Shown piece by piece: positions 15,921 to 57,270 of a stretch of 64,000 bases of DNA. This DNA comes from Mobula hypostoma. Taxonomy: Eukaryota. The translations under genes and the position numbers were made by a program. The DNA lies in NCBI RefSeq assembly GCF_963921235.1, contig NC_086108.1, positions 49,106,001 to 49,170,000 of the forward strand. The letters run 5' to 3'. Positions within the stretch are counted from its first letter, which is position 1. Each line of letters opens with the position of its first letter. The notes below the pieces were generated by a model. That model ran no database searches. It worked only from the letters and a program-made list of their open reading frames with translations, and had not been told where the DNA came from.

Positions 15921-16454
15921 CTTCAAAGTTCAAAGTAAATTTATTATCAAAATATATACAGTATGTGTTACTATAGACTACCTTGAGATTCATTTTCTTG
16001 CAAGCAATCACAGTAAATACAAGAAACACAATGGAATCATCACTGAACAGTGCTACATGAACTATTCCTATAACTCATTTTCATGGACTCTTCATCTCAT
16101 AGTCTTGATATTTACTGCTTATCATTTCTTAATTTTTATCATAGCATCTGCAGAAGAGAGTAAACAGTCAAAGTTTCAGACCGACACCCTTCATTCTCCA
16201 GTCCTAATGAAGGGTCTCGCCTGAAATGTCTACTGTTTACTCTTTTCCATAGATGTTGCCAGGCCTGCCAAGTTCCTCAAGCATTTTGCGTGCGTTGCTT
16301 GGATTTCCAGCATCTGCAGATTTTCTCTTGTTTGTAACAGTACCAGCGACCCTTGTTCAGGTCGTGCCACTGAACTCCTCCAGATGCTCTGGTTTCCCTC
16401 CATAGTCCAAAGACATACTGGTTGGTAGATTAATTGGTCTTTGTAAATTGCCCC

Positions 16455-22697: not shown

Positions 22698-22847
22698 AAA
22701 CAGTACACAATATGCGATTAAACGATTGAGCTTTATAATTCTTAATTTGATTATATGGTTAGTAAAGAAAACAAAAAAGACAAAGGAGCATACATCAAAG
22801 TTGCTGGTGAACGCAGCAGGCCAAGCAGCATCTATAGGAAGAGGTGC

Positions 22848-22883
22848 AGTCGACGTTTCAGGCAGAGACCCTTCGTCAGGACT
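22848..22883 (-). ncRNA. Minimal type I hammerhead ribozyme motif (Penelope-associated)
   Basis: AGUC-CUGACGA-AGGGUCUCUGCCU-GAAA-CGUC-GACU: intact core boxes, stem I AGUC/GACU, palindromic ACGU in place of stem III. Confidence 0.7.
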
Positions 22884-23179
22884 AACTAAAGGAAGAGTGA
22901 GTAAGGGATTTGAAAGTTGGAGGGGGAGGGGGAGATCCAAAATGATAGGAGAAGACAGGAGGGGGAGGGATAGAGCCGAGAGCTGGACAGGTGATAGGCA
23001 AAAGGGGATACGAGAGGATCATGGGACAGGAGGTCCGGGAAGAAAGACAAGGGGGGGGTGTGACCCAGAGGATGGGTAAGAGGTATATTCAGAGGGACAG
23101 AGGGAGAAAAAGGAGAGTGAGAGAAAGAATGTGTGCATAAAAATGAGTAACAGATGGGGTACGAGGGGGAGGTGGGGCC

Positions 23180-23920
23180 TTAGCGGAAGTTAGAGAAGTC
23201 GATGTTCATGCCATCAGGTTGGAGGCTACCCAGACGGAATATAAGGTGTTGTTCCTCCAGCCTGAGTGTGGCTTCATCTTTACAGTAGAGGAGGCCGTGG
23301 ATAGACATGTCAGAATGGGAATGGGATGTGGAATTAAAATGTGTGGCCACTGGGAGATCCTGCTTTCTCTGGCGGACAGAGCGTAGATGTTCAGCAAAGC
23401 GGTCTCCCAGTCTGCATCGGGTCTCACCGATATATAAAAGGCCACAACGGGAGCACCGGACGCAGTATATCACCCCAGTCGACTCACAGGTGAAGTGATG
23501 CCTCACCTGGAAGGACTGTTTGGGGCCCTGAATGGTGGTAAGGGAGGAAGTGTAAGGGCATGTGTAGCACTTGTTCCGCTTACACGGATAAGTGCCAGGA
23601 GGGAGATCAGTGGGGAGGGATGGGGGGACGAATGGACAAGGGAGTTGTGTAGGGAGCGATCCCTGCGGAATGCAGAGGGGAGGGGATGGAAAGATGTGCT
23701 TAGTGGTGGGATCCCATTGGAGGTGGCGGAAGTTACGGAGAATAATATGTTGGACCCGGAGGCTGGTGGGGTGGTAGGTGAGGACCAGGGGAACCCTATT
23801 CCTAGTGGGATGGTGGGAGGATGGAGTGAGAGCAGATGTACGTGAAATGGGGGAGATGCGTTTAAGAGCAGAGTTGATAGTGGAGGAAGGGAAGCCCCTT
23901 TCTTTAAAAAAGGAAGACAT
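23180..23920 (-). pseudogene. Penelope GIY-YIG endonuclease ORF remnant
   Basis: CKRNKCYTC, FTCESTGVIYCVRCSRCGLLYIGETRCRLGDRFAEH, VATHFN and LQPDGMN. Confidence 0.9.
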
Positions 23921-24479
23921 CTCCCTCGTCCTAGAATGAAAAGCCTCATCCTGAGAGCAGATGCGGCGGAGACGGAGGAATTGCGAGAAGGGGATGGCGT
24001 TTTTGCAAGAGACAGCTCCAGTTCCTTATTACATTAGCTCAGTACACCTGGTGCATGTGTTTATCCAGGAAACCTCCAGTCTCCTGGACTTCCCACATCC
24101 AGTACAAAATACTGTCCTTGGAGCCATTCTCACTAAACTATGCACTAATAGATGAGGAATGAACAAATAAGAATACAGATAAGAGTAACTTAAAAGACAA
24201 CGTACCTCATCCAAGCCTGATCTCATTTAAGTCTGATGAGCCAAAGCCACTCTAAAGACTAGCAAACTCACAAGATCGCCACTCTGCTTGCACTTGAATT
24301 ATTCTTATTGGCTCTTTCTAAAGAATCCCTTTTGCTGATTGGTCACTCCTCAAATCAGTAAAAATGCTATTAAACTCCACTTTTGAAATCTCATTTGCCA
24401 CCCTGATTAAAGTAGATCTTTTCATGCACCACTGGTGTGGATTGTCCAACTCATACTACTTGCATTCTCATGTTACCTC

Positions 24480-27690: not shown

Positions 27691-27787
27691 GAAAAGGTCT
27701 CTCGACAAAAAAGAAGGTAAACTGCCCCAAAATCGAATTTAGACAAATACTTAATATTGCATAACTATATTAATAAAAGGGGCAAGG

Positions 27788-28774
27788 ATGATGCCTAAGA
27801 ACAAGAATAAAAAGCCCGCTCCGAAGGCTGATAAACATAAAGAGACGCAGCAAGGCGACGGGCCTAGCTCCCCTACGGCAAGCCAGGACGGAGATAATGA
27901 GGGGGAATCGGTGACTCTGTCTTTGATTCTCGGAGAGATTCGCGAGTTCCGACAAGATAACAGCAAACAGCTGGAAGATATTAAAGGAGAAATAGTAAAA
28001 ACTAACTCGCGGATAGATGAAGCCGAAGCGAGGATTGTTGGAATTGAAGAGAAGCTACAAAACACCGAGGAAGTGATAGCAGAAATGCTGAAGCTGCAAG
28101 ACCAACTCCAGTGGAAACTAATAGATCAAGGCGGCCGCTCAAGAAGGGAAAATGTGAGGATCTACGGAGTTCCCGAAGGAACCGAAGGTAAACCCGGATT
28201 GATGATTCCCTTCGTGGAGAAGCTGCTTAGAGAGAACCTTGATATACCGGCCGCAAAAGACCTACAGATAGAAAGGGCTCACCGCGCGTTGGCACCACAG
28301 CCCCCGGCAGGCGCCCAGCCCAGATCGATTCTGATCAGATTTCTCAGTTACAGAACGAAGGAAGAGGTGCTTAAACGGGCATGGCAAAAGAAAGGTTTAA
28401 TGTGGAACAACTGCAAAATCAGTTTAGACCACGACTACGCACCGGGGATTCTTGCCAGACGGAAGGAATATACGGAAACACGGAGAGTCCTGAAGGAAAA
28501 CAACATCAGATTCCAGACCCTGTATCCAGCTCGGCTGAGAGTCTTTTACGACGAAGGGACAAAAACTTACGCTACGGTGGAGGAGGCAACGTCGGACCTG
28601 GCGGACCGGGGACTACCTATTAAAGTTATCACCCAACCGGAGTCGCTACTGGAGAGGATTCGGCAGAAGTCGTGGCAGTTAGTGGGGCGAGGACGCTCCG
28701 CTCGAACCAGAGTGTCAAACTACAAGGAAAAGCTGCAAATATTCAGACGCGAATGTACAGAGAATACAGATTAA
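27788..28774 (+). CDS. L1 ORF1p (coiled coil plus RRM/CTD, Transposase_22-like), 328 aa, open
   Basis: Heptad-rich N-terminus, RSRRENVRIYGVPEG, IERAHR, PRSILIRF, ARRKEY and LYPARLRV. Confidence 0.93.
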   Translation: MMPKNKNKKPAPKADKHKETQQGDGPSSPTASQDGDNEGESVTLSLILGEIREFRQDNSKQLEDIKGEIVKTNSRIDEAEARIVGIEEKLQNTEEVIAEMLKLQDQLQWKLIDQGGRSRRENVRIYGVPEGTEGKPGLMIPFVEKLLRENLDIPAAKDLQIERAHRALAPQPPAGAQPRSILIRFLSYRTKEEVLKRAWQKKGLMWNNCKISLDHDYAPGILARRKEYTETRRVLKENNIRFQTLYPARLRVFYDEGTKTYATVEEATSDLADRGLPIKVITQPESLLERIRQKSWQLVGRGRSARTRVSNYKEKLQIFRRECTENTD

Positions 28775-29136: not shown

Positions 29137-32100
29137 ATGCAAACTGAATTGGTAAAAATAATTTCCTAGAATGTTAATGGGGTTTTGAATCCAATTAAAA
29201 GAAATAAGATTATGTCTAAATTGAAAAAAGAGAGGGCACAAATAGCTTTCCTCCAGGAAACACATATGAGCCAATCTGAACATGGAAAATTAAAAAGAAT
29301 GGGCTTTAAGCATGTATTTTATTCATCATATAAATTGAGTCACAAAAGAGGGGTAGCTACTTTAATATCAAGTACTCTTAATTATGAACATATTTCAGAG
29401 ACTAGAGACAAAGAAGGACGGTTTGTAAAAATCACAGGAAGAATAGAAGGTACAGAAATAACATTGCTGAATGTTTATGCTCCTCCAGGTAGTGAATGGT
29501 CATTTTATAGACACATTTTTGACCTAATGGTCAGTTCTCGAGGGGTAGTAATTTGTGGAGGGGATTTTAATATTAGATTAAATCCTATATTAGATTCTTC
29601 AAGAATAGTTACTCAGAATAAACCTCTGACTCGGAAAGTGAATTCATTGATGGAGGAGTTGGGAATTATAGATGTCTGGAGGGAATTACACCCTACTAGT
29701 AAAGATTATACATATTACTCTTTCCCTCATTCAGCCTATTCAAGGATAGACTATTTCTTTATCTTTAATACAGATAGACTCAGGATAAAAAACTGTAATA
29801 TTGCAACAATTGATCTGTCGGATCATAGCCCAGTCTCTATGTCTCTAATCCTGGAAAGGAAAATGAGGAAAACACTATGGAGGCTAAACTCACATATACT
29901 CAATAACCCGAAAGTAATGGAGAGATTAAGGGGAGAAATCAAAGAATATCTAGACCTTAATGACACGGGAGAAACATCACCAGTGATTTTATGGGATACA
30001 TTGAAAGCTGTACTGAGAGGGAAAATTATTTCCATTACTACTCACATGAAAAAAATTAATGCACAAAAATTAGCAGACCTTCAAGGAAAATTAAAACGAC
30101 TTCAAGTTGTAGATAGCAACAAAAGTAATTCAAATCGAAAACAGGAAATTAGGAAATTGCAAAGTGAAATTGATGATATTTATACGTTGGAAACTCAAAG
30201 AAATTTTCTTTACCTGAGACAAAAGAATTATGAAGTAGGAGGTAAATCAGCTAGATTATTAGCATATAAATTACGAAAACAACAAGCAGACAATACAATT
30301 CATAAAATAAAGAATCCAAAGACAAAGCTTGTGGAGAGTACAATAGGGAAAATTCAAGAGAGTTTTGAAACATATTATCGAGAGCTGTACTCCCGGGCCC
30401 CCAATGAGCCCTATATAGACAGTGTATTGAATTTTTTAGATCTACCTAAACTTACAGATTTACAAAATGAAAGTTTATTAGAACCAGTAACTGTCAAAGA
30501 ACTGAACATGGCCATCTCCAGGTTAAAGGCTGGAAAGTCCCCGGGTTCTGATGGGTTTACCTCAGAGTGGTACAAGTCCCTGAAGACACAGTTAGCCCCA
30601 TTACTACTTAACACCTTTAATTGGATCTTGCAGAGAGGAGAAACTCCACCTTCCTGGAGAGAAGCGATTATTTCAGTTATTCCTAAAGAGGGTAAAGATA
30701 AACTAGAATGTGGCAATTATCAGCCAATTAGTGTTCTTAATTTAGATTACAAACTATTTACATCTATATTAGCGCGCAGATTGGAAAAGCTTTTACCTGG
30801 CCTAATCCATTTAGACCAGACTGGATTTATTCAACAAAGACAAACACAGGACAACATAAGGAGAACTCTGCACATATTAGAACAGGTTAATAAGAACGAG
30901 ACAGAGACAATGGTAGTAGGATTGGACGCTGAGAAAGCTTTTGATTCGGTTAGTTGGGCATTCCTATACAGAGTGTTAGGAAGATTCGGCTTTCAAGAAA
31001 GGTTTATTAAAGTAATTCAGACTCTATATGACAGCCCTACAGCCCAAATTAAGATAAATGGGGACCTCTCTGACTCCTTCATTTTAGAGAGAGGCACTAG
31101 ACAGGGATGCCCAATTTCTCCTCTCCTTTTTGCGCTATATATTGAACCACTTGCCCAACTAATAAGACAGAGCGAAATCGTAAAAGGTATCAAGGTGGCA
31201 GGGATTGAACAGAAAGTGGCGTTATTCGCAGATGATGTTTTGGTCTATCTGAGTGAACCAGAAAAATCATTTATAGGATTGTTTACACTGTTGGATGACT
31301 TTGGGAAAATATCAGGTTATAAAATAAATGTAAAGAAAACGCAGGTTATGTCCCTAAATTATACACCATCCAAAAAATTGCAGGATACATACGATCTTAA
31401 GTGGGAAGCTAAATCATTAAAATATTTAGGAATAACCCTGCCGAAGGATCTTTCAATACTGTCACAGGTAAATTATGGGCCATTAATCTCAGAGATAAAA
31501 GCAGATATGCATAGATGGAATCTTATCCCCTTTTTAAGTTTAAATTCAAGGATAAATACTATAAAAATGAATATTCTTCCTCGGTTATTATATCTTTTCC
31601 GTACTTTACCAGTGGAGGTGGATGATAATCAATTCAGGGAATGGGACAAATGGATTTCCCGCTTCATTTGGCAAGGAAGGAAACCTAGAATTCGATATAA
31701 CACCTTACAGTTAGGGAAGGAAAGAGGAGGTATGGTTCTTCCTTGCCTGAGAAATTATTTTTATGCCTCACAGATAACCCCTCTGTTATATTGGTGTAAT
31801 AGGGAATATAAGGCTAGATGGAAGGAAATAGAATTTGGATTAGTTGACAGTTTTCCTCTTCAGGCCTCAATAGCTGACAAAGGATTGATGGCCCAGTTGG
31901 AAAAATTTAATAATGCTTGGATAATTCTTACATTAAAAGTATGGCAGAAGGTGGTTAATTCATGTGGAATTAATAACATGCTAAAACTCTTTAGATGGTG
32001 TGCATATGATACCGAATTCCTTCCCAACAGAGGAGATAAAAGATTTGAGCTATGGATAAAGAAGGGTCTTACAACCTACCTCTCATTTATAGATAAAAGA

Positions 32101-32904
32101 GTATTACAAAGTTTCCAAATCCTGCAGGACAAACATGGCCTAGAACATAATGACTTTTTTTAGGTACCTTCAAATACGAAACTATGTTAACCAGAGTTGT
32201 AGATATACAGACCTATCAACAGTAGAATTAGAATTTTTCAAGATTCTGAATTCGGCTTGCAGTTCAATACCTAGTAAATCAGTTTCTCGCCTATATGATG
32301 CACTCTCCCATGCTAAAAATGTAAATACACTGTATATTAAAGAGAAGTGGGAGAAAGAAGCGGGGTTGGTACTTTCAGAGGAGGCTTGGCGGAAAATCTG
32401 CAGCTTTCAATGGTCCTCGACTAATTCTTTGACTTGGAGAGAACATTGTTGGAAAAACATTATAAGATACTTCAAGACCCCATATCAGGAAAAATATAAA
32501 GATACAATGTGATGTGTTGGAGAAGGTGCGGCTCCAAGGAGGCAAATCATTTTCATATTTTCTGGGATTGCCCTAAATTAAGTCTATTTTGGGAAGGTAT
32601 TCATAGAACATTAGTTAAGGTACTTAGGTCCCAGATACCTCTGAACTTTGAGACGCTCTATTTGGGGCATGTATTGTTCCTTGAACAGAAGGAAGATATA
32701 AAGTTGCTGCAGGCCCTCTTAGCGGCAAGTAAGAAATCAATCACTAGAAAATGGCTAAATCCAATACCACCTACATTAGAAGATTGGTACGAAATTATCT
32801 TGGAAATATTTAAAATGGAAAAGTTGACTTACTCCCTGAGAACTCAAAAAGAAACATTTTATCAAATCTGGAATAAATGGATTGAATATATAACCCCAAT
32901 GTGA
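29137..32904 (+). pseudogene. L1 ORF2p (APE endonuclease, RT, CCHC knuckle) with one nonsense codon and two frameshifts
   Basis: ATG 29137 reads MQTELVKIIS*NVNG (TAG at 29167-29169). Motifs FLQETH, GGDFN, SRIDYF, SDH, GLDAEKAFD, GTRQGCPISP, LFADD, YLG and CWRRC...HIFWDC. Frame changes at the T7 run 32155-32161 and at ~32508. Confidence 0.93.
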
Positions 32905-46205: not shown

Positions 46206-47832
46206 TGTGTGATCATATGATTCTTAGTTATTATATATAGCCATTTTGACAATTGTGTATATAATACCTGAAAATCCATTTTTTGTCCTCTCTGGTTGAT
46301 CTGAAACAGGGCATATTAATCTGAACTGCTAACAATCTTTGTAACAGAGGTGGTCCAACAATAGAGTTAGATACAATAAGGAATTCTTAAGGTTAAAACT
46401 CAAGATGATGCATAACTTCCCACCACAAATTTGTACTTTTCATTTAAAACTCAACTATTCACCATTTCATTGTGGATAGTACTTCATAAACAAATGGTAT
46501 CAATTATTTCTAATTGATTCTATATAAAAGTTACGATCAAGAAATTTGGTAGAGGAGGCTTTCACTGTCAACAATATACAGACATATAGTATGCATTTTG
46601 GTATACGTGTGCCATTGCCAAAAGTTGTCAGTTTCAGTGTTTTGACAGGAGTGCTGACACTTTTGTCTTTAATAGGATTATAAAATGAGAACCATTGTAT
46701 CCATAGTTTGAAAATTATTAATGTCCACTTTTGCACCTCCTTTAGCTTCAATGGAATTTGGTTTCTTTCATCTTTTTATCTAATGTTTTCAATTTGGAAC
46801 AGGTATAGTGTTGCTTCGCTACATGATTTCCAAATTTTCAAAGGCAACCAAAACAAAATGCAATATTTATACAAAACCACTATGGAAAAAAGGCACTTTA
46901 GATTCATTTGAATTTAATCAGGATATTTTTCTCTGTAAAGGTGCTGTATAAATGTTGCACATTAGAGGTTTGGCCTATTGGAGAAGCTGAATAGCTTTTT
47001 ATTGTTTCGTCTGTTAATATTACTTCTTAAACGGAATACATTTTGGCCTGATAAACCAGTATTGCATTTTTAATTCACTCTATGATACTTTGATGTTGGT
47101 TTCTTGAAATATCCAAATGGAAAAGCAATATTATAGAACTAAAAGAATGAAATAGATAAATCAAGGAAAATGTAACAAAAATAACAAACCATTTACATTT
47201 GTTCAAATATTCTGCATTAATACAGAATTTATGCAGTTCAAATGAAGACAAATCTTGATGGAAATAGGATTTGTTTTTCTTGTTTTATTACTCAAATGGA
47301 AAATTATGATAATATGCATTTTGGAAAAATAGTCACATGATTGATTGCCACCAGAGGGCACAACTTGTACGGAATGTAATTCAGAACAAGTACATGTTAA
47401 GAAGAAAAAGTAAGAAGGTTATAAATTTAAAGGGAAGGGTGTAGATTTGAAATTTTGCCTAGGGTTTTCTCTTATTCCATGTGTAAACCTTGAAGTCAAC
47501 ATTTAAAAGTTTACTTGAATAAAGTTGCAACAGGGCTTATATGCTATAATGGACTATAAAATTAAGTCAGGCATTTGTGTCGACAATAGTACGTCCCTTC
47601 CCAATGAGCTTAAAGTATTTTATGCACATTTTGAACAGAACAGAAAAGAATTAGAACTTGCTGCCCAGCAGGATGGCTTCCAATGGACCTGAAACTACAG
47701 TAACTGTTCTGCAGGTAAGATCAGTCTTCCAGGCAAACACGAAGAAATCTGCAGATGTTGGACTTTCAAGCAACACACATAGAAGTTGCTGGTGAACACA
47801 GCAGGCCAGGCAGCATCTCTAGGAAGAAGTAC

Positions 47833-47868
47833 AGTCGGCGTTTCGGGCCGAGACCCTTCGTCAGGACT
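47833..47868 (-). ncRNA. Hammerhead motif with a core mutation (GAAACGCC)
   Basis: Identical to 48823-48858 except that the U of the NUH triplet is C (position 47838). Predicted to be uncleavable. Confidence 0.6.
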
Positions 47869-48822
47869 AACTGAAAGAAGAGCTAGTAAGAGATTTGAAA
47901 GGGGGATGGGGAAATCTGAAATGATAGGAGAAGACGAGGGGTGGGGGGGGGATGGAGCCAAGAGCCGGACAGTTGATTGGCAAAAGGGATATGAGAGGAT
48001 CATGGGACAGGAGGCCTAGGGAGAAAGAAAAGTGGAGGGGGGAAACCCAGAGGATGGGCAAGGCGTATAGTGAGAGCGACAGAGGGAGAAAAAGGAGAGA
48101 GAGAGAAAAAGAACGTGTGTAGAAAATAAATAAATAACAGACGGGGTACGAGGGGAGGTGGGGCATTAGCGGAAGTTTGAGAAGTCAGTGTTCATGCCAT
48201 CAGGTTGGAGGCTACCCAGACGGAATACGAGGTGTTGTTCCTCCAACCTGAGTGTGGCTTCATCTTTACAGTAGAGGAGGCCGTGGATAGACATATCAGA
48301 ATGGGAATGGGACGTGGAATTAAAATGTGTAGCCACTAGGAGATGGACTTTCTCCCAGTGGCCACACATTTTAATTCCATGTCCCATTCCCATTCTGATA
48401 TGTCTGTCCACAGCCTCCTCTACTGTAAGGATGAAGCCACACTCAGGTTGGAGGAACAACACCTCGTATTCCGTCTGGGTAGCCTCCAACCTGATGGCAT
48501 GAACACTGACTTCTCAAACTTCCGCTAATGCCCCATCTCCCCCTTGTACCCCATCTGTTAATTATTTATTTATATACACACTTTCTTTTTCTTTCTCTCC
48601 TTTTGCTCCCTCTGTCACTCTCACTATACCCCTTGCCCATCCTTTGGGCTTCCTCCTCCCCCTTTTCTTTCTCCCTAGGCCTCCTGTCCCATGATCCTCT
48701 CATATCCCTTTTGCCAATCAACTGTCCGGCTCTTGGCTCCATCCCTCCCCCTCCTGTCTTCTCCTATCATTTAGGATCTCCCCCTCCCCCTCTCAAATCT
48801 CTTACTTGCTGTTCTTTCAGTT

Positions 48823-48858
48823 AGTCCTGACGAAGGGTCTCGGCCCGAAACGTCGACT
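48823..48858 (+). ncRNA. Minimal type I hammerhead ribozyme motif, best-preserved copy
   Basis: AGUC-CUGACGA-A-GGGUCUCGGCCC-GAAA-CGUC-GACU. Predicted cleavage after C48854 (GUC triplet). Confidence 0.75.
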
Positions 48859-50124
48859 GTCCCTCTTCCTAGAGATGCTGCCTGGCCTGCTGCGTTCACC
48901 AGCAACTTTTATGTGTGTTGCTCAGTCTTCCAGGAGCATCTGGCCCAGATGGTATGCCTGGCCATGTCCTTGGATGCTTTACAGATAAGCTGGAGAGGGC
49001 ATAAAGAAATAATTTAACCTCTTGCAGCTTCAGTCTGAAGTTACCACCTACTTTAAGAAGACTTGTATTTACAAAAAATAAGACAATGTGCCTAAATGCT
49101 ACTGCTGGTGGCTGTGACATTCACCTTCATGAAGTGCTGCAAGAGGCTGGTCATGACATGCATTAACTCCAGCAACATTCTCTCTAAATTTTATTTACAA
49201 CTGTGTGGACCAATCATTGGTCTAAGTAGGAAATTTTTATACTGCCTGAAAACTGCATGGCATTCAAATGTTCTTTTTTTGTGATGTGCGTACTATGAAT
49301 ATTTAGAATGAAAATTGAAAATCAAATACTTTTGATTTTATTTATTATTGAAGAGTATAATGAAATACAGTACAGCAAAGAAAATCTTACACATTTTGTG
49401 AACTTTTTCTAGCTGCATTCAATTCCAGCTGTGCAGCAACAAAGACTATGTGTGGGAGCATTTCCATTACTGGGCAGCCATGCACCCACGCAGCTTCAAG
49501 GGAAGAGTGAACTCCAGCCTCCCAGACAACTTTGACCCATTGTAACTCATCTACCACTGAAACAGGTCTATGGTGCACTCCATCTCTCTGGCCTTGCACT
49601 CATCTCTGGAGCATCTAGACAATAAATAAATAAGCAAATAAAGTAATAAACTATTGTTTATTGATTACAGCCCTATGTTCAATGCTATAATTCTAAGCAA
49701 ATTCATCTTCACGCTCCCAGTCTTCGGTCTGAACATCTCTCTCCAAGTGGATCCTTGACTTCCTGACCAATAGACTGATATCAGTAAGGATAAGCAGCAA
49801 TACCTCCACCATATTTGTGCTCAACATTGGTGTCCTACAGGCTGTATCCTCAGACTCGACTCTACTTCCTATATGCTCATGACTGCATAGCCAGATTCTG
49901 TCCTAATTCCAACTACAGATTTGCAGATGAGACCACTGTAGCGGACTGTATCTCAAATAATGATGAGTTAGTGTACAAGAAGGAGATAGAAAGCCTAGTT
50001 AATTTGGTGTCACGACAACTACCTTTTCCTTAATATCACAAAAGATCATTAGCATCAGGAAGGTTGGTGGTGCATATGCTCCTGTTTACATCAATAGTGC
50101 TGAAGTTGATGCTGATGTTGAAGA

Positions 50125-50500: not shown

Positions 50501-51097
50501 TACTACAGGGAGATGATAGAGAAAAATTGCGGTCAGTGGGATGAGTTGCATTGTAACGGGGGACAACATTGAAAATGGTGACGAATACAGGACTGAATGT
50601 GTTATATTTGAATGCACACAGTATACTGTATAAGGTAGATAATCTTGTAGCACAATTACAGATTGGCAGATATGACATTTTGTGCATGAAGCCAATGTGG
50701 GAATTGAAGTACTTCAATATTTGGGCAGGAGGTGTCTGATGGGGTGGGTGGGTAGTTTGTGAGGTGGTGTGCTCTTTCCACTATTTGTTTTGGGCTTCTC
50801 AGTGCATCTGATGCATAGGTTTGAGGTTCTCAGCACCATCCTAAATGTTCCTTCTTCTCTTTGTGCAGTCATGGCCCAAGCAGTCTAAGGGTCAGTCAGC
50901 ATATTGTTGCACGGAGTGACTGGAGGCAACTGGAATCGGACCCAAGTGCAGGACACAGGCACGGAGACGGATTTGGACATGACTTGGACTCGGAACTTGA
51001 CTAGGACTGGGACTCGGAACTGGAAATAGACGGAGTCTGGAACTTGAACTGGAACACGGAGCCGGGAACTTGAACTGGAACACTGAGCCTAGACTTA

Positions 51098-52338
51098 GGC
51101 TACATCCACACTAGACCGGATAATTTTGAAAACGCTGGTTTTGAGTAAAAACGACAGGTGTCCACACTAGGCGTTTTTCAAAATATCTCTGTCCACACTA
51201 AAACAGGTATTTGGGCGAACCTCCTTCTCCTGGGCACGCGCAGACACAGCTACAGAAAACAAGCAAAGAAGAAACGGTATAATATTTACATTTCCGCCGC
51301 GGCGTTGTGCTATTTCCATTGGTCAAAAACTGGAGTACCTACAACAACAGCGAAAGGAAGTTTTCAAAAACGTCTTGGTTCTTGATCCTCCAAAATATTT
51401 GGCATAGAATTTAAACTGGAGGTGGTGGAGGGTGGGCTTAAGAAGGAGATTTTTGAAGAAGAAAAGCTGCCTTAAATTTAGTTGGGTTTGGTTGTGTGAC
51501 TGTGTTAGGAATACAAAGAAAACCTCCGCTGGAAAAAGCAGACTGGACTTCTCTGTTTAGACAGACAATGAAGTCGAGCTGTTTCTGCGAGTTACAAATG
51601 ACTGCAAAGTCAGCAAAGCAGTGGAGAACGTGGAGGGAGATGTTTAACTCCTTCTTAAGCCCACCCTCCACCACCTCCAGTTTAAATTCCATGCGGAATA
51701 TTTTGGAGGATCAAGAACCAACAACCAAGAACTCCAAACAAGCTATTAACATAGACAATAAAGTAAGCAACACGCACATGAAGCCGTCCTCTACCCAAGA
51801 TCAACAATAGAGTAGAATCTTCTGCCGCCAGACCTGCACAGTACTTCTGACAGTAATATTTTTAAAGATAGACTCAACCAATTAATTTAGGGGATCTAGT
51901 GAAAAAAGGTTACTTTACAATTTAACTCTCATGCCATTCACACCGACTGCGTGTTATAACAGCCGTTCAGCAGTGCTTGTGCAGTACCAAGCAAAAGCAA
52001 AAACCTTCTTCAAAAATCTCCTCCTTAAGCCCACCCTCCGTCACCTCCAGTTTAAATTCCATATGGAATATTTTGGAGGATCACGAACCAAGAACCAAGC
52101 AGAAGCAGTAAAAGCATTGTTGTTGTGGTGTTGGCATAACAACATTTTAAGATCTCTCTGTTTACCCCGTCCACACTACAACGCGAAACAATCGTTTTCA
52201 AACTTACACGCTCTGGAGAGTGTTTTCGAAAATCTCTGTTTTCGGGGGATGAAAATGCCATTTCAGTGTGGACGGAGGGTCAAAACGAAGAGAAAAATCT
52301 TTGTTTTCAAAATTATCCGGCGTAGTGTGGACATAGCT
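51098..52338. mobile_element. Non-autonomous PIF/Harbinger-like DNA transposon
   Basis: TIRs GGCTACATCCACACTAGACCGGATAATTTTGAAAAC and GTTTTCAAAATTATCCGGCGTAGTGTGGACATAGCT, 3-bp flanks TTA/TCA, subterminal TCCACAC repeats and a Myb-like remnant. Confidence 0.8.
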
Positions 52339-52341
52339 TCA

Positions 52342-52450
52342 GACTTGGACTCGGACAAGGAGCCGGGACACCGACTTGGACTCAGACAAGGAGCCGGCAC
52401 TCCGACTTGGACTCAGACAAGGAGCCGGGCCTTGGATTTGGACTCGGACA
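52342..52450. repeat. 31-bp tandem repeat, ~3.5 copies
   Basis: GACTTGGACTCGGACAAGGAGCCGGGACACC units start at 52342, 52373, 52404 and 52435. Confidence 0.85.
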
Positions 52451-52455
52451 TGGAA

Positions 52456-52910
52456 CGACAAAACAACGACAGTCCATTCGAGTAGCGGCAAACGGCCTGC
52501 CTACTCAGCTGGATATGAGACGACAAAACAACGACAGTCCATTCGAGTAGCGGCAAACGGCCTGCCTACTCAGCTGGATACGAGACGACAAAACAACGAC
52601 AGTCCATTCGAGTAGCGGCAAACAGCCTGCCTACTCAGCTGGATACGAGACGACAAAACAACGACAGTCCATTCGAGTAGCGGAAAACGGCCTGCCTACT
52701 CAGCTGGATACGAGACGACAAAACAACGACAGTCCATTCGAGTAGCGGCAAACAGCCTGCCTACTCAGCTGGATACGAGACGACAAAACAAAGACAGTCC
52801 ATTCGAGTAGCGGCAAACAGCCTGCCTACTCAGCTGGATACGAGACGACAAAACAACGACAGTCCATTCGAGTAGCGGCAAACGACCTGCCTACTCAGCT
52901 GGATACGAGA
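52456..52910. repeat. 65-bp minisatellite, 7 near-identical copies plus degenerate tail
   Basis: CGACAAAACAACGACAGTCCATTCGAGTAGCGGCAAACRGCCTGCCTACTCAGCTGGATACGAGA starts at 52456, 52521, 52586, 52651, 52716, 52781 and 52846. Confidence 0.97.
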
Positions 52911-53454
52911 CGAAATCCAAACCACAACAGTCCATTCGAATCTCAGCTCAGAGTAGCGGCAATGGACAGCAAATCTCAGCTGGCCATGGAAACGGCAGAA
53001 TTCGTACCTTTGATTCGGAGTGACGGCAAACAGCCAGCAACTCAGCTGGACACAAAAACGACGAAATCCATAAAGCACCCAGGGCACCGAAGCCACTTAG
53101 AGTCCACAATGAACGGGGTCCCGAATCGGGCACAACTGCGTTTGCTCAGGTGGCGGTCCAGCATCGAGTAGCTGTAAGCCAGAACTTTTATGCTGCCGGC
53201 TCAGATGGGAAACAGGTGCCTTAATCAAGGCACCCGATGGACCACGGTGAAAAGGAAATAACTGGAATGAGGAGTCAACAGACGGAACCATGACAGATAT
53301 TACACTTATTCAAGGTTTTGACCGCATCAATAAATATATTTCTTTGTCTGCCTTATAACCTTTTCCCGTTACAATGTTTTGACTACAATGTCTCTTTTAG
53401 GAATCTTATTGCCTGGCATATGAACAAAATGTCCTGCTTGAGGGGACAAACTGA

Positions 53455-54704: not shown

Positions 54705-57270
54705 AAGAGAAGTGCCTACTGTCCCATGCCCAGATCACGTTTCAGTAAATTGGATCACTTGGCTGTCCTCTTATCTACATGCAGGCAGAGGCTAACAAGC
54801 AAAGCTCCTGAAATTTGGATGTCAAAGAGGTATCGTGGGAGGCAGAGGAGCGGCAATGGGATTGCTTCGAGTTGGTGGACTAGGTTTGTTCAAGGACTCT
54901 TCTCTGGATCTGAATGAATACACCCTGGTTGTCATGGACTTTATTAAAACAGTTGTAGACAAGTGTGTTTCCACAAAATTATTCAGAGTCTTCCCCAACC
55001 AGGACCCCTGGATGAACTATGGGATCTGCTGTCCGTTGAGATATTCAAGTCTAGTGACTAAGAAAATTACAAGAGGTCCATATAAAATCTCCAGAAAGCC
55101 ATCTCATGGGCAAAGTGGCAATTCCAGATTAAACTTGAATCAATGAAGGATGCTTAACAATTGTGGCATGGCTTGAACACTGTCACCTCTTATGAAGTTA
55201 AATCAAGTGACCTAGGCAGCAACCAGGCTTCGCTTCAGATGAGTGCAATGCCTTCTATTTTCACTTTGACTGTGGAGGAAACATGGAGGAACTATTGCAA
55301 ACTCCCTCAGCCCCTTATGATCCTATGATTTCAGTTTCTGAGGCCAACGTGTGAGCAACCTTCAAGTAGGTGAACCTACAACAACCATTTGGCCTAGACG
55401 GGGTACCTGGCCAAGTACTAAAGACTGATGAACTGACTGGAGTGTTTACTCAGACCTTTAACCTCTCACTTCGACAGTCTGAGGTACACAACTGCTTCAA
55501 GTAAACTTCAATTATACCAATGCCTAAGAGAACATGGTAACCTGCCTCAATGACTATCATCCACCAGCACTTACATCCACTGTGATGAAGTGTTTTGAGA
55601 GGCTGGTGATGAAACATATAAGCTCCTGCCTGAGAGGTGACTTGGATCCACTCCAATATGCCTACTGGAGCAACAAATCCACAGCAGATGCCATTTTCTT
55701 GGCTCTTCACTCAACCCTGGAACATCTGACAGCAAAGGCGCATACGTACATCAGGATGCTCTTTACCAATTACAGCTCAGTTTTCAATACCATCGTCCCC
55801 TCAAAGCTAATCAATAAGCTTTAAGACCTTGGCTTCAATACCTCCTTGTGCAATTGGATCCTTGATTTCCTCACTCGTAGACCCCAGCCAGTTTGGTTTG
55901 GCAACAACATCTCCTCCACAATCTCCATCAACACAGGTGCACCATAAAGCTGTGTGCTTCCCACCACACCTCCTCCCCCGCTCTACTCGCTTTACACTAA
56001 TGATGATGTGGCTAAGCACGGCTCCAATGCCATGTTCAAGTTTGCTGACAACACCATTGTCATAGGCCAAATCAAAGGTGGTGATAAATCAGCACATAGG
56101 AGGGAGATTGAAAATCAGGCTGAGCAGTGTCATAATAACAACCAGAAAGCTATCTAATGGGCAAAATGGCAATTCCAGACTAAACTTGAATCAATGAAGG
56201 ATGTTTAACAGTTGTGGCATGGCTTGAACACTATCACCTCTTATAAAGTTAAATGTCAGCAAGACCAAGGAGCTGATTATTGACTTCAGGAGAAAGAAAC
56301 CGGAGGTTTATGAGCCAGTCCTAATTGGAGGATCAATGGTGGAAAGGGTTAGCAATTTTAAATTCCTTGATGTTATTATTTTGGAGGACCTGTCCTGGGT
56401 GCAGCACATAATGTAAGTGCAATTACAAAGAAAGCACGGCAAACTTGAGAGTTTGCGAAGATTTGTCATGCCTTCTAAAACATTGACAAATTTCTATGGA
56501 TGTGTAGTGGAGAGTATGTTGACTGGCTGCATCATATGAGAAACACCAATGCCCTTGAACAGAAAATTCTACAGAAAGTACTGGATATGGCTCAGTCTAT
56601 CAGTGGTAAAACCCTCCCACCATTAAGCACATCTACATGAAGCATTATTGCAGGAAAACAGCATCCATCATCAGGGACCCCCACCATGCAGGTCATGCTC
56701 TCTTCTTGCTGGTGCCATCAGGTAGAAGGTACAGGAGCCTCAGGACTCATAGCACCAGGTTTGAGAACAGTTATTACCCCTCAACCATCAGGCTCTTGAA
56801 CCAAAGGGGATAACTTCACACATCTCACTTGCACCATCATTGAGGTGTCCTAGATAGACTGGGAAAACAGGGTGTCGGGATCCAGGGCGAGAGCCGATTT
56901 CGCTTGCTCTTTGTGATGGTCACTTCTCTCTCTATAGCGTGAGGCTATAAAGACTGTCCTGGCTGTTGTGCTCTGTGCCTGCTGCAATGCTTTGGGTCTA
57001 TTTTGGCTCCATGGTTCAGATTTCGGGACTCGGTTTTGATTGTTGTTTTTCACCTCAGATGTTTGCATGGTTTGTGTTTTTTTTCTTTCTCTTGCTTATC
57101 AAGTGTTTGTCTTATTTATTTATTTTCTTTAATTGGGTACTTTTGGGTTTCTTGCTTTGTGACTACCTGTGAGCAAACAAATCTCAAGGTTGTATACATT
57201 CTTTGGTAATAAATGTACTTTGACTTGAATATATGTCCTTGGGTAATAAATTTAATTTGAACTTTGAACT
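54705..57270 (+). mobile_element. Decayed Rex1/Babar-like LINE with tail
   Basis: CLNDYHPPALTSTVMKCFERLV...LDPLQYAY...STADAI...YIRMLFTNYSSVFNTI and LYSLYTND...FKFADNT. Ends in (TTTGAAC)n. Confidence 0.88.

Follow-up and report, generated by a model that had tools for sequence, protein, structure and literature searches.

The 64-kb window (the whole stretch of 64,000 nucleotides analyzed here) contains a two-armed insertion of a Penelope-like element (PLE), which lies in a decayed LINE-like fragment and is bounded by a single target site duplication (TSD) of 13 bp (Table 1). Each arm is a 5′-truncated PLE 3′ end. The two arms stand head to head and are joined by a 7-nt spacer. They begin at one and the same base within the GIY-YIG ORF, near residue 224 in the 281-aa frame that a third, longer family copy carries. 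Alignment and BLAST both bear out this arrangement, which a first-pass annotation had described from the letters of the sequence. A BLAST match starting at query base 1 had raised the idea that the common start of the arms is a fixed pLTR boundary. This was ruled out: the third copy continues upstream of the shared start, which is thus a true truncation.

Table 1. Features of the two-armed insertion, its host fragment, and the third copy of the family (window positions).
Feature	Positions	Strand	Basis or remark
Third copy of the arms' PLE family, longer and more distant	22783..24025	-	86-87% to arms
Decayed LINE-like host fragment, left flank	47560..47733	+	In register with two other copies only jointly with right flank
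TSD, left copy, 13 bp	47721..47733	+	Exact repeat
PLE tail, 36 nt	47734..47769	-	Left arm only
Left arm, 5′-truncated PLE 3′ end (GIY-YIG C terminus and pLTR)	47770..48343	-	tblastn, 90% versus third copy's ORF
Minimal hammerhead motif, changed core base (GAAAC-GCC, position 47838)	47831..47870	-	Motif scan
Spacer TGGACTT, 7 nt	48344..48350	.	Arm comparison
Right arm, 5′-truncated PLE 3′ end without tail	48351..48921	+	tblastn, 91% over residues 224-281
Minimal hammerhead motif, intact core (CUGACGA ... GAAAC-GUC)	48821..48860	+	Motif scan
TSD, right copy, 13 bp	48922..48934	+	Exact repeat
Decayed LINE-like host fragment, right flank	48935..49075	+	About 16 nt missing two bases after TSD

The exact duplication reported to bound the unit was also recovered. 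The word TCAGTCTTCCAGG occurs exactly twice on the plus strand of the window, at the two TSD copies, and never on the minus strand; the probability that 13 bases match by chance at a given place is about 1.5e-8. The border of the right copy is uncertain by 1 base, since its first T also fits the element. Without the tail, a pairwise alignment of the two arms over 576 columns shows 37 mismatches and 4 gap events spanning 7 columns, in agreement with the scattered substitutions and indels first noticed; 25 of the differences are transitions and 7 changes are at CpG. The identity between arms given by BLAST is 92.4%. The substitution count was taken from the pairwise alignment, and a three-way alignment giving 43 was set aside, its purine tracts being misaligned. 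The outer ends are unequal, with the left arm longer as claimed (47734-48343 on the minus strand, tail included), but its extension measures 36 nt and not about 40. About 106 nt (48159-48264 and the mirror stretch of the right arm) are identical between the arms despite the overall divergence of 6.5%, which may be chance or gene conversion.

The left flank alone gives an alignment score no better than shuffles. When the empty site is rebuilt, it can be aligned over its whole length with another LINE-like copy, scoring 124 versus 80 for the best of 300 shuffles, and a window copy related to the host fragment has a weak RVT_1 match (E = 1.5e-4, below the cut-off). The proposal of a Rex1 host thus stands in part: the alignment makes the flanks collinear parts of one decayed retroelement bearing reverse transcriptase (RT), while the name Rex1 (Rex1/Babar) is a label we assume for this LINE fragment. 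At 48935-48937, the host shows a gap of about 16 nt relative to the copy at 55150-55560, which may predate or accompany the insertion. The dsRNA proposed to arise by read-through gained no support, and no host gene for read-through was found among the 20 frames scanned out of 179 stop-to-stop frames of at least 75 aa; 5 of these 20 gave matches, all to RT or APE domains. The insert is a dead relic without demonstrated function. Elsewhere in the window, an open frame of 997 aa (29170-32163, plus strand) encodes APE endonuclease and RT domains and corresponds to a LINE ORF2 that is almost intact; before it lies a 339-aa frame (27755-28774) without a Pfam match. A 1.26-kb element at 51088-52348, flanked by related short tandem repeats, has inverted ends (55 nt, 78%) and both inverted and direct repeats in its interior, and resembles a non-autonomous DNA transposon, presumably Harbinger-like. 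It is followed by a tandem array (52381-52991) with a 65-nt period and about 7 copies, up to 97% alike.

We used the third copy as the reference for the sequence across the turn of the palindrome and for clade placement. Its 281-aa open frame carries a GIY-YIG domain (PF01541, E = 5.5e-4, 20.6 bits, slightly below the cut-off of 22.6), and its residues 224-281 are the part encoded by the arms. Pfam gave no match for the arm fragments alone, and the same fragments are 90-91% identical to the third copy's frame by tblastn. This frame has 27 longer homologues, including proteins with RT and GIY-YIG and two shark proteins, and one homologue (P0003, 43% identity) is above the cut-off for both GIY-YIG and RVT_1. 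None of the PLE copies within the window reaches the RT core, which is seen only in the homologues. A CX2-5CxxC linker precedes the GIY-YIG motif in the third copy's frame, in the form CKRNKCYTC (CX4CxxC). This linker is a mark of Neptune and Nematis that is missing from Penelope/Poseidon (PMC8557442). Because of the linker, we assign the arms to an endonuclease-bearing (EN+) PLE of the Neptune/Nematis type, the two not being separated; the Penelope/Poseidon clade in the strict sense was ruled out on the same ground. The family is very abundant, with a summed depth of millions versus 8 on the unique flank in run X1 (a measure of depth, not of copy number). Scans of collections of metagenome contigs, viral contigs and prokaryote genomes found 0 loci with the junction or the family.

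The outer ends of both arms coincide with the two end classes of the family. Among the PLE copies of the window, two older ones finish at the tail end, like the left arm, and one other finishes at the tail-less site, like the right arm. The depth of the tail at 47763 is 23-38% of that at 47798/47782 in run X1, and across four public runs the depth of the extension is 20-75% of the depth just inside the pLTR. A tail of 30-40 nt at one end only is a described signature of PLEs (PMC3846280, PMC8557442), and in an anole element the tail is placed between two reverse-transcription start sites (PMC11167929). The 36 extra bases of the left arm are the known optional PLE tail and no oddity.

Read against the hammerhead core pattern and numbering, a motif scan predicted a minimal hammerhead motif in both arms and in the third copy. 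The claim of a hammerhead in each arm therefore needs qualifying: the motif is present in both, but among the arms the core is intact in the right one only. The right arm reads GAAAC-GUC, as does 98% of the family depth in run X1, and the left arm is changed at 47838 to GAAAC-GCC. A search of Rfam with E values of up to 1 returned no hammerhead family. Candidate microRNA or other Rfam hairpins were rejected, since all 5 matches were far below the cut-off (best, 50.2 versus 85 bits); they arise from the palindrome center. When the two hammerheads, the region of the parent turn and that of the tail were folded, none gave a better result than shuffles (z of -0.28 to 0.29). PMC4209133 describes a minimal hammerhead class with a CUGANGA ... 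GAAA core, helix II and no stable helix III, situated in the pLTR and found in fish Xena, Poseidon and Neptune. The motifs of the arms resemble these metazoan hammerheads in core and placement, and differ from them in lying on opposite strands and, on the left, in the changed core (PMC4209133). Since they are on opposite strands, one transcript could not form a dimeric ribozyme from the two.

To place the insertion among relatives, contigs of four public runs were aligned to 46900-48400, and the statements on contigs hold among the 32 pieces (of 320,789) and 15 joints (of 298) listed. One contig of organism A covers 46900-47779 with 0 differences, running through the left flank, the TSD and the tail, and one of organism B covers 46900-47773 with 6 differences, crossing the left junction. 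From organism C, a 366-nt contig agrees with 47582-47733 apart from 5 differences, a divergence near that of this organism's flank; its match ends at the last base of the TSD, leaving 214 letters. No listed piece of organism D covers the TSD, and none of the 32 listed contigs bridges the center of the palindrome. The organism C contig is what an empty site would give, although it might come from a paralogous LINE copy. The empty site expected in relatives thus gains a candidate that stops matching exactly at the TSD, with the same reservation about a paralogue.

Variants at the element point to a common origin of the arms. Of 122 variant rows, 40 were listed, 28 of them in the element, and 26 positions were used (the tail row at 47763 and a second row for 48064 were left out). 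Among the rows listed, there are 15 positions at which the letter of the left arm makes up at most 15% of the depth of run X1; the right arm agrees with the left at 5 of them, follows the family at 8 and shows a third letter at 2. These 5 of 15 shared rare variants compare with 0.9 expected for independent sites, an expectation that overstates the test because the shared variants are linked. They include C47966 (0.2%) and a 6-nt deletion relative to the third copy and the family loose end. Among the positions listed, 8 have a left-arm letter that is common in organism A and a minority in organism C; the arms agree at 7 of these, which fits an insertion after the split from organism C. The arms have the same letter at 48105 and carry alternative common alleles at 48045. 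The shared variants show one source lineage, not necessarily one molecule. The divergence between the arms (6.5%, 37/~570) exceeds the flank distance between organisms A and C (29/800; Fisher test, P = 0.02), a difference that weakens once CpG changes are removed (P = 0.14) and is absent against the flank distance of organism D (29/569; P = 0.37). Given the divergence above the A-C flank distance, the arms may not have been identical at the start, and the excess may also reflect the 50% versus 32% GC.

We conclude, with a probability of about 0.92, that the whole unit arose by one retrotransposition event of a Neptune/Nematis-type PLE. The single TSD, the shared rare variants and the organism C contig support the earlier proposal of one event from one source lineage. 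Tempering this, the center is spanned by none of the contigs listed and the organism C contig might be a paralogue. Two separate insertions that hit one spot, or a rearrangement that later doubled one copy, would be helped by the great abundance of the family and by the host gap beside the right TSD, a possible repair scar. We consider them highly improbable given the one TSD, the same truncation base, the shared rare variants and the outer ends at the end classes of the family. An artefact of assembly or of a chimeric read folding back is the least probable of the explanations. It draws on the unbridged center (in the 32 contigs listed of 320,789 pieces) and on the stretch compared, which ended at 48400, short of the right junction. 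Such an artefact should yield identical arms, whereas there are 37 differing sites and 4 gaps, unlike outer ends and a TSD, and the left junction is present in two species (organisms A and B).

The two routes proposed at the outset, dual priming and fold-back, are both still the live ones. The likeliest, to which we give about an even chance, is dual priming by both nicked target ends on one RNA. The GIY-YIG nuclease would nick both target strands, 13 bases apart, and both target 3′ ends would prime reverse transcription on RNA from one source copy. The left arm would be primed at the start site of the tail end and keep the tail, and the right arm would be primed 36 nt further in and lack it. 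Both cDNAs would halt at the same base, most simply at the 5′ end of one broken RNA, and their 3′ ends would be joined by the 7-nt filler, each then being copied on the other. This route rests on an analogy with the anole element, whose protein, in vitro, cuts both strands and extends them from two start sites, and for which a dimer is predicted (PMC11167929). Dual priming on one RNA would explain the TSD, the outer ends at both end classes, the shared variants and the non-parental spacer.

The spacer carries much of the choice. On the minus strand it reads AAGTCCA, and the family sequence at that place is AAGCAGGA; the two are not equal and differ by a replacement of 4 bases for 3. A plain snap-back would keep the family sequence in the spacer, so that the non-parental AAGTCCA counts for dual priming, and this comparison moved our weight toward it from fold-back. 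In the fold-back route, a cDNA primed at the tail end would halt just past the turn, snap back on the weak GAGA/TCTC inverted match and copy itself, the nuclease trimming the second arm at the tail-less site. We regard this as a serious contender of lesser probability. It makes the base-exact symmetry and the short loop automatic, where dual priming needs the extra assumption of one RNA end. It also accounts for the rare variants common to both arms, and at the turn the third copy itself carries an inverted match of 4 bp around an 8-nt loop (GAGA-8-TCTC), a weak hairpin with whose loop the spacer shares AAG and the final A. The 6.5% difference between the arms and the alternative alleles at 48045 sit uneasily with a single RNA template. 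The self-priming reading of such junctions is published and preferred in PMC3846280, and PMC8557442 ascribes the tail to nuclease resolution. Against fold-back, a 4-for-3 replacement would be unlikely at a drift of about 3% per arm, the upstream family majority is GAAA and not GAGA, and folding of the parent region does not outdo shuffles (z = 0.03). A separate cut would also be needed for the right arm to finish where it does, at a start site of the family. A second, older two-armed PLE piece lies at 16145-16334 (72% inverted match, short left arm), with a 10-nt spacer resembling its family's parent sequence, as fold-back would have it, a tail on the right arm only and no TSD by eye. Dual priming on two RNAs of one sub-lineage would suit the mild excess of arm over flank divergence (P = 0.02 versus organism C) and the alleles at 48045. 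It is nevertheless improbable, since it leaves the same stop base without a reason, the excess shrinks when CpG sites are left out and may stem from base composition, and 7 of the 8 lineage-marking sites listed agree.

Within dual priming on one RNA, the filler itself offers a lead. The spacer and its two next bases (48344-48352) read TGGACTTTC, an exact 9-nt match to 47759-47767 in the unit's own tail that includes C47763, where 98-99% of the family depth has A. Of 12,288 possible spacers, 282 (2.3%) reach a 9-base match within the unit, and 3.1% do so when 200-base flanks are added; the match was noticed before testing and serves as a lead only. One RNA might thus have been primed twice at internal start sites by both nicked strands, with the filler copied from the tail in a brief re-initiation, a version that we hold tentatively and think rather unlikely as a whole. 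This model of double priming from two start sites was not found in the literature searched, whose scope excluded subscription papers (e.g., Arkhipova 2006).

The two-armed unit is a new instance of a described inverted insertion form of EN+ PLEs. PMC3846280 names the head-to-head arrangement the "typical Penelope structure", and Fig. 2 of Craig et al. 2021 (PMC8557442) draws it as typical. The unit resembles Pen2a_Av and the Pen2 derivatives of Adineta vaga (PMC3846280) and the elements of PMC8557442 Fig. 2 in having an inverted 5′-truncated copy at the 5′ end, one TSD around the whole (9-10 bp in the inverted-pLTR PLEs of these two sources, 13 bp in Mobula), a 30-40-nt tail on one end only and a palindrome at the junction. 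Unlike them, the Mobula unit has neither a full ORF nor an upstream direct pLTR, both of its arms are cut at the same base inside the endonuclease region, and its host is a cartilaginous fish. The Poseidon element of Anolis carolinensis, PAc, shares with the unit's family two end classes split by the tail and a pLTR hammerhead, and its cutting and extension of both strands in vitro supply the dual-priming route. PAc belongs to the Penelope/Poseidon clade, whereas the family has the linker of Neptune/Nematis, and it prefers AT-rich ATT sites, whereas the TSD of the unit is 54% GC; the part of the PAc paper available does not discuss head-to-head products (PMC11167929). Likewise, the accessible part of bioRxiv 10.64898/2026.07.22.740005 has nothing bearing on inverted insertions.

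Among the joints listed (15 of 298), head-to-head-like ones occur at other positions in runs X5, X9 and X10, with short sides of 21-34 letters, and the pattern probably recurs in the PLE family. In the twin priming of L1, reportedly described by Ostertag and Kazazian in 2001, both target ends are said to prime RT and to leave an inverted junction inside one TSD; the second primer reportedly starts internally, so that the inverted part is not a second copy of the 3′ end. Unlike in that process, both arms of the Mobula unit copy the same 3′ end. The single locus is of little weight, as a dead copy in a described arrangement within a decayed LINE host, and it is one data point on the open question of how PLEs make inverted insertions. 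If double priming with a tail-copied filler were true genome-wide, it would provide one model for the one-arm tail in head-to-head Penelope insertions, replacing self-priming. The family is apparently abundant and related genomes with empty sites are apparently available, so that a genome-wide count could separate dual priming from fold-back.
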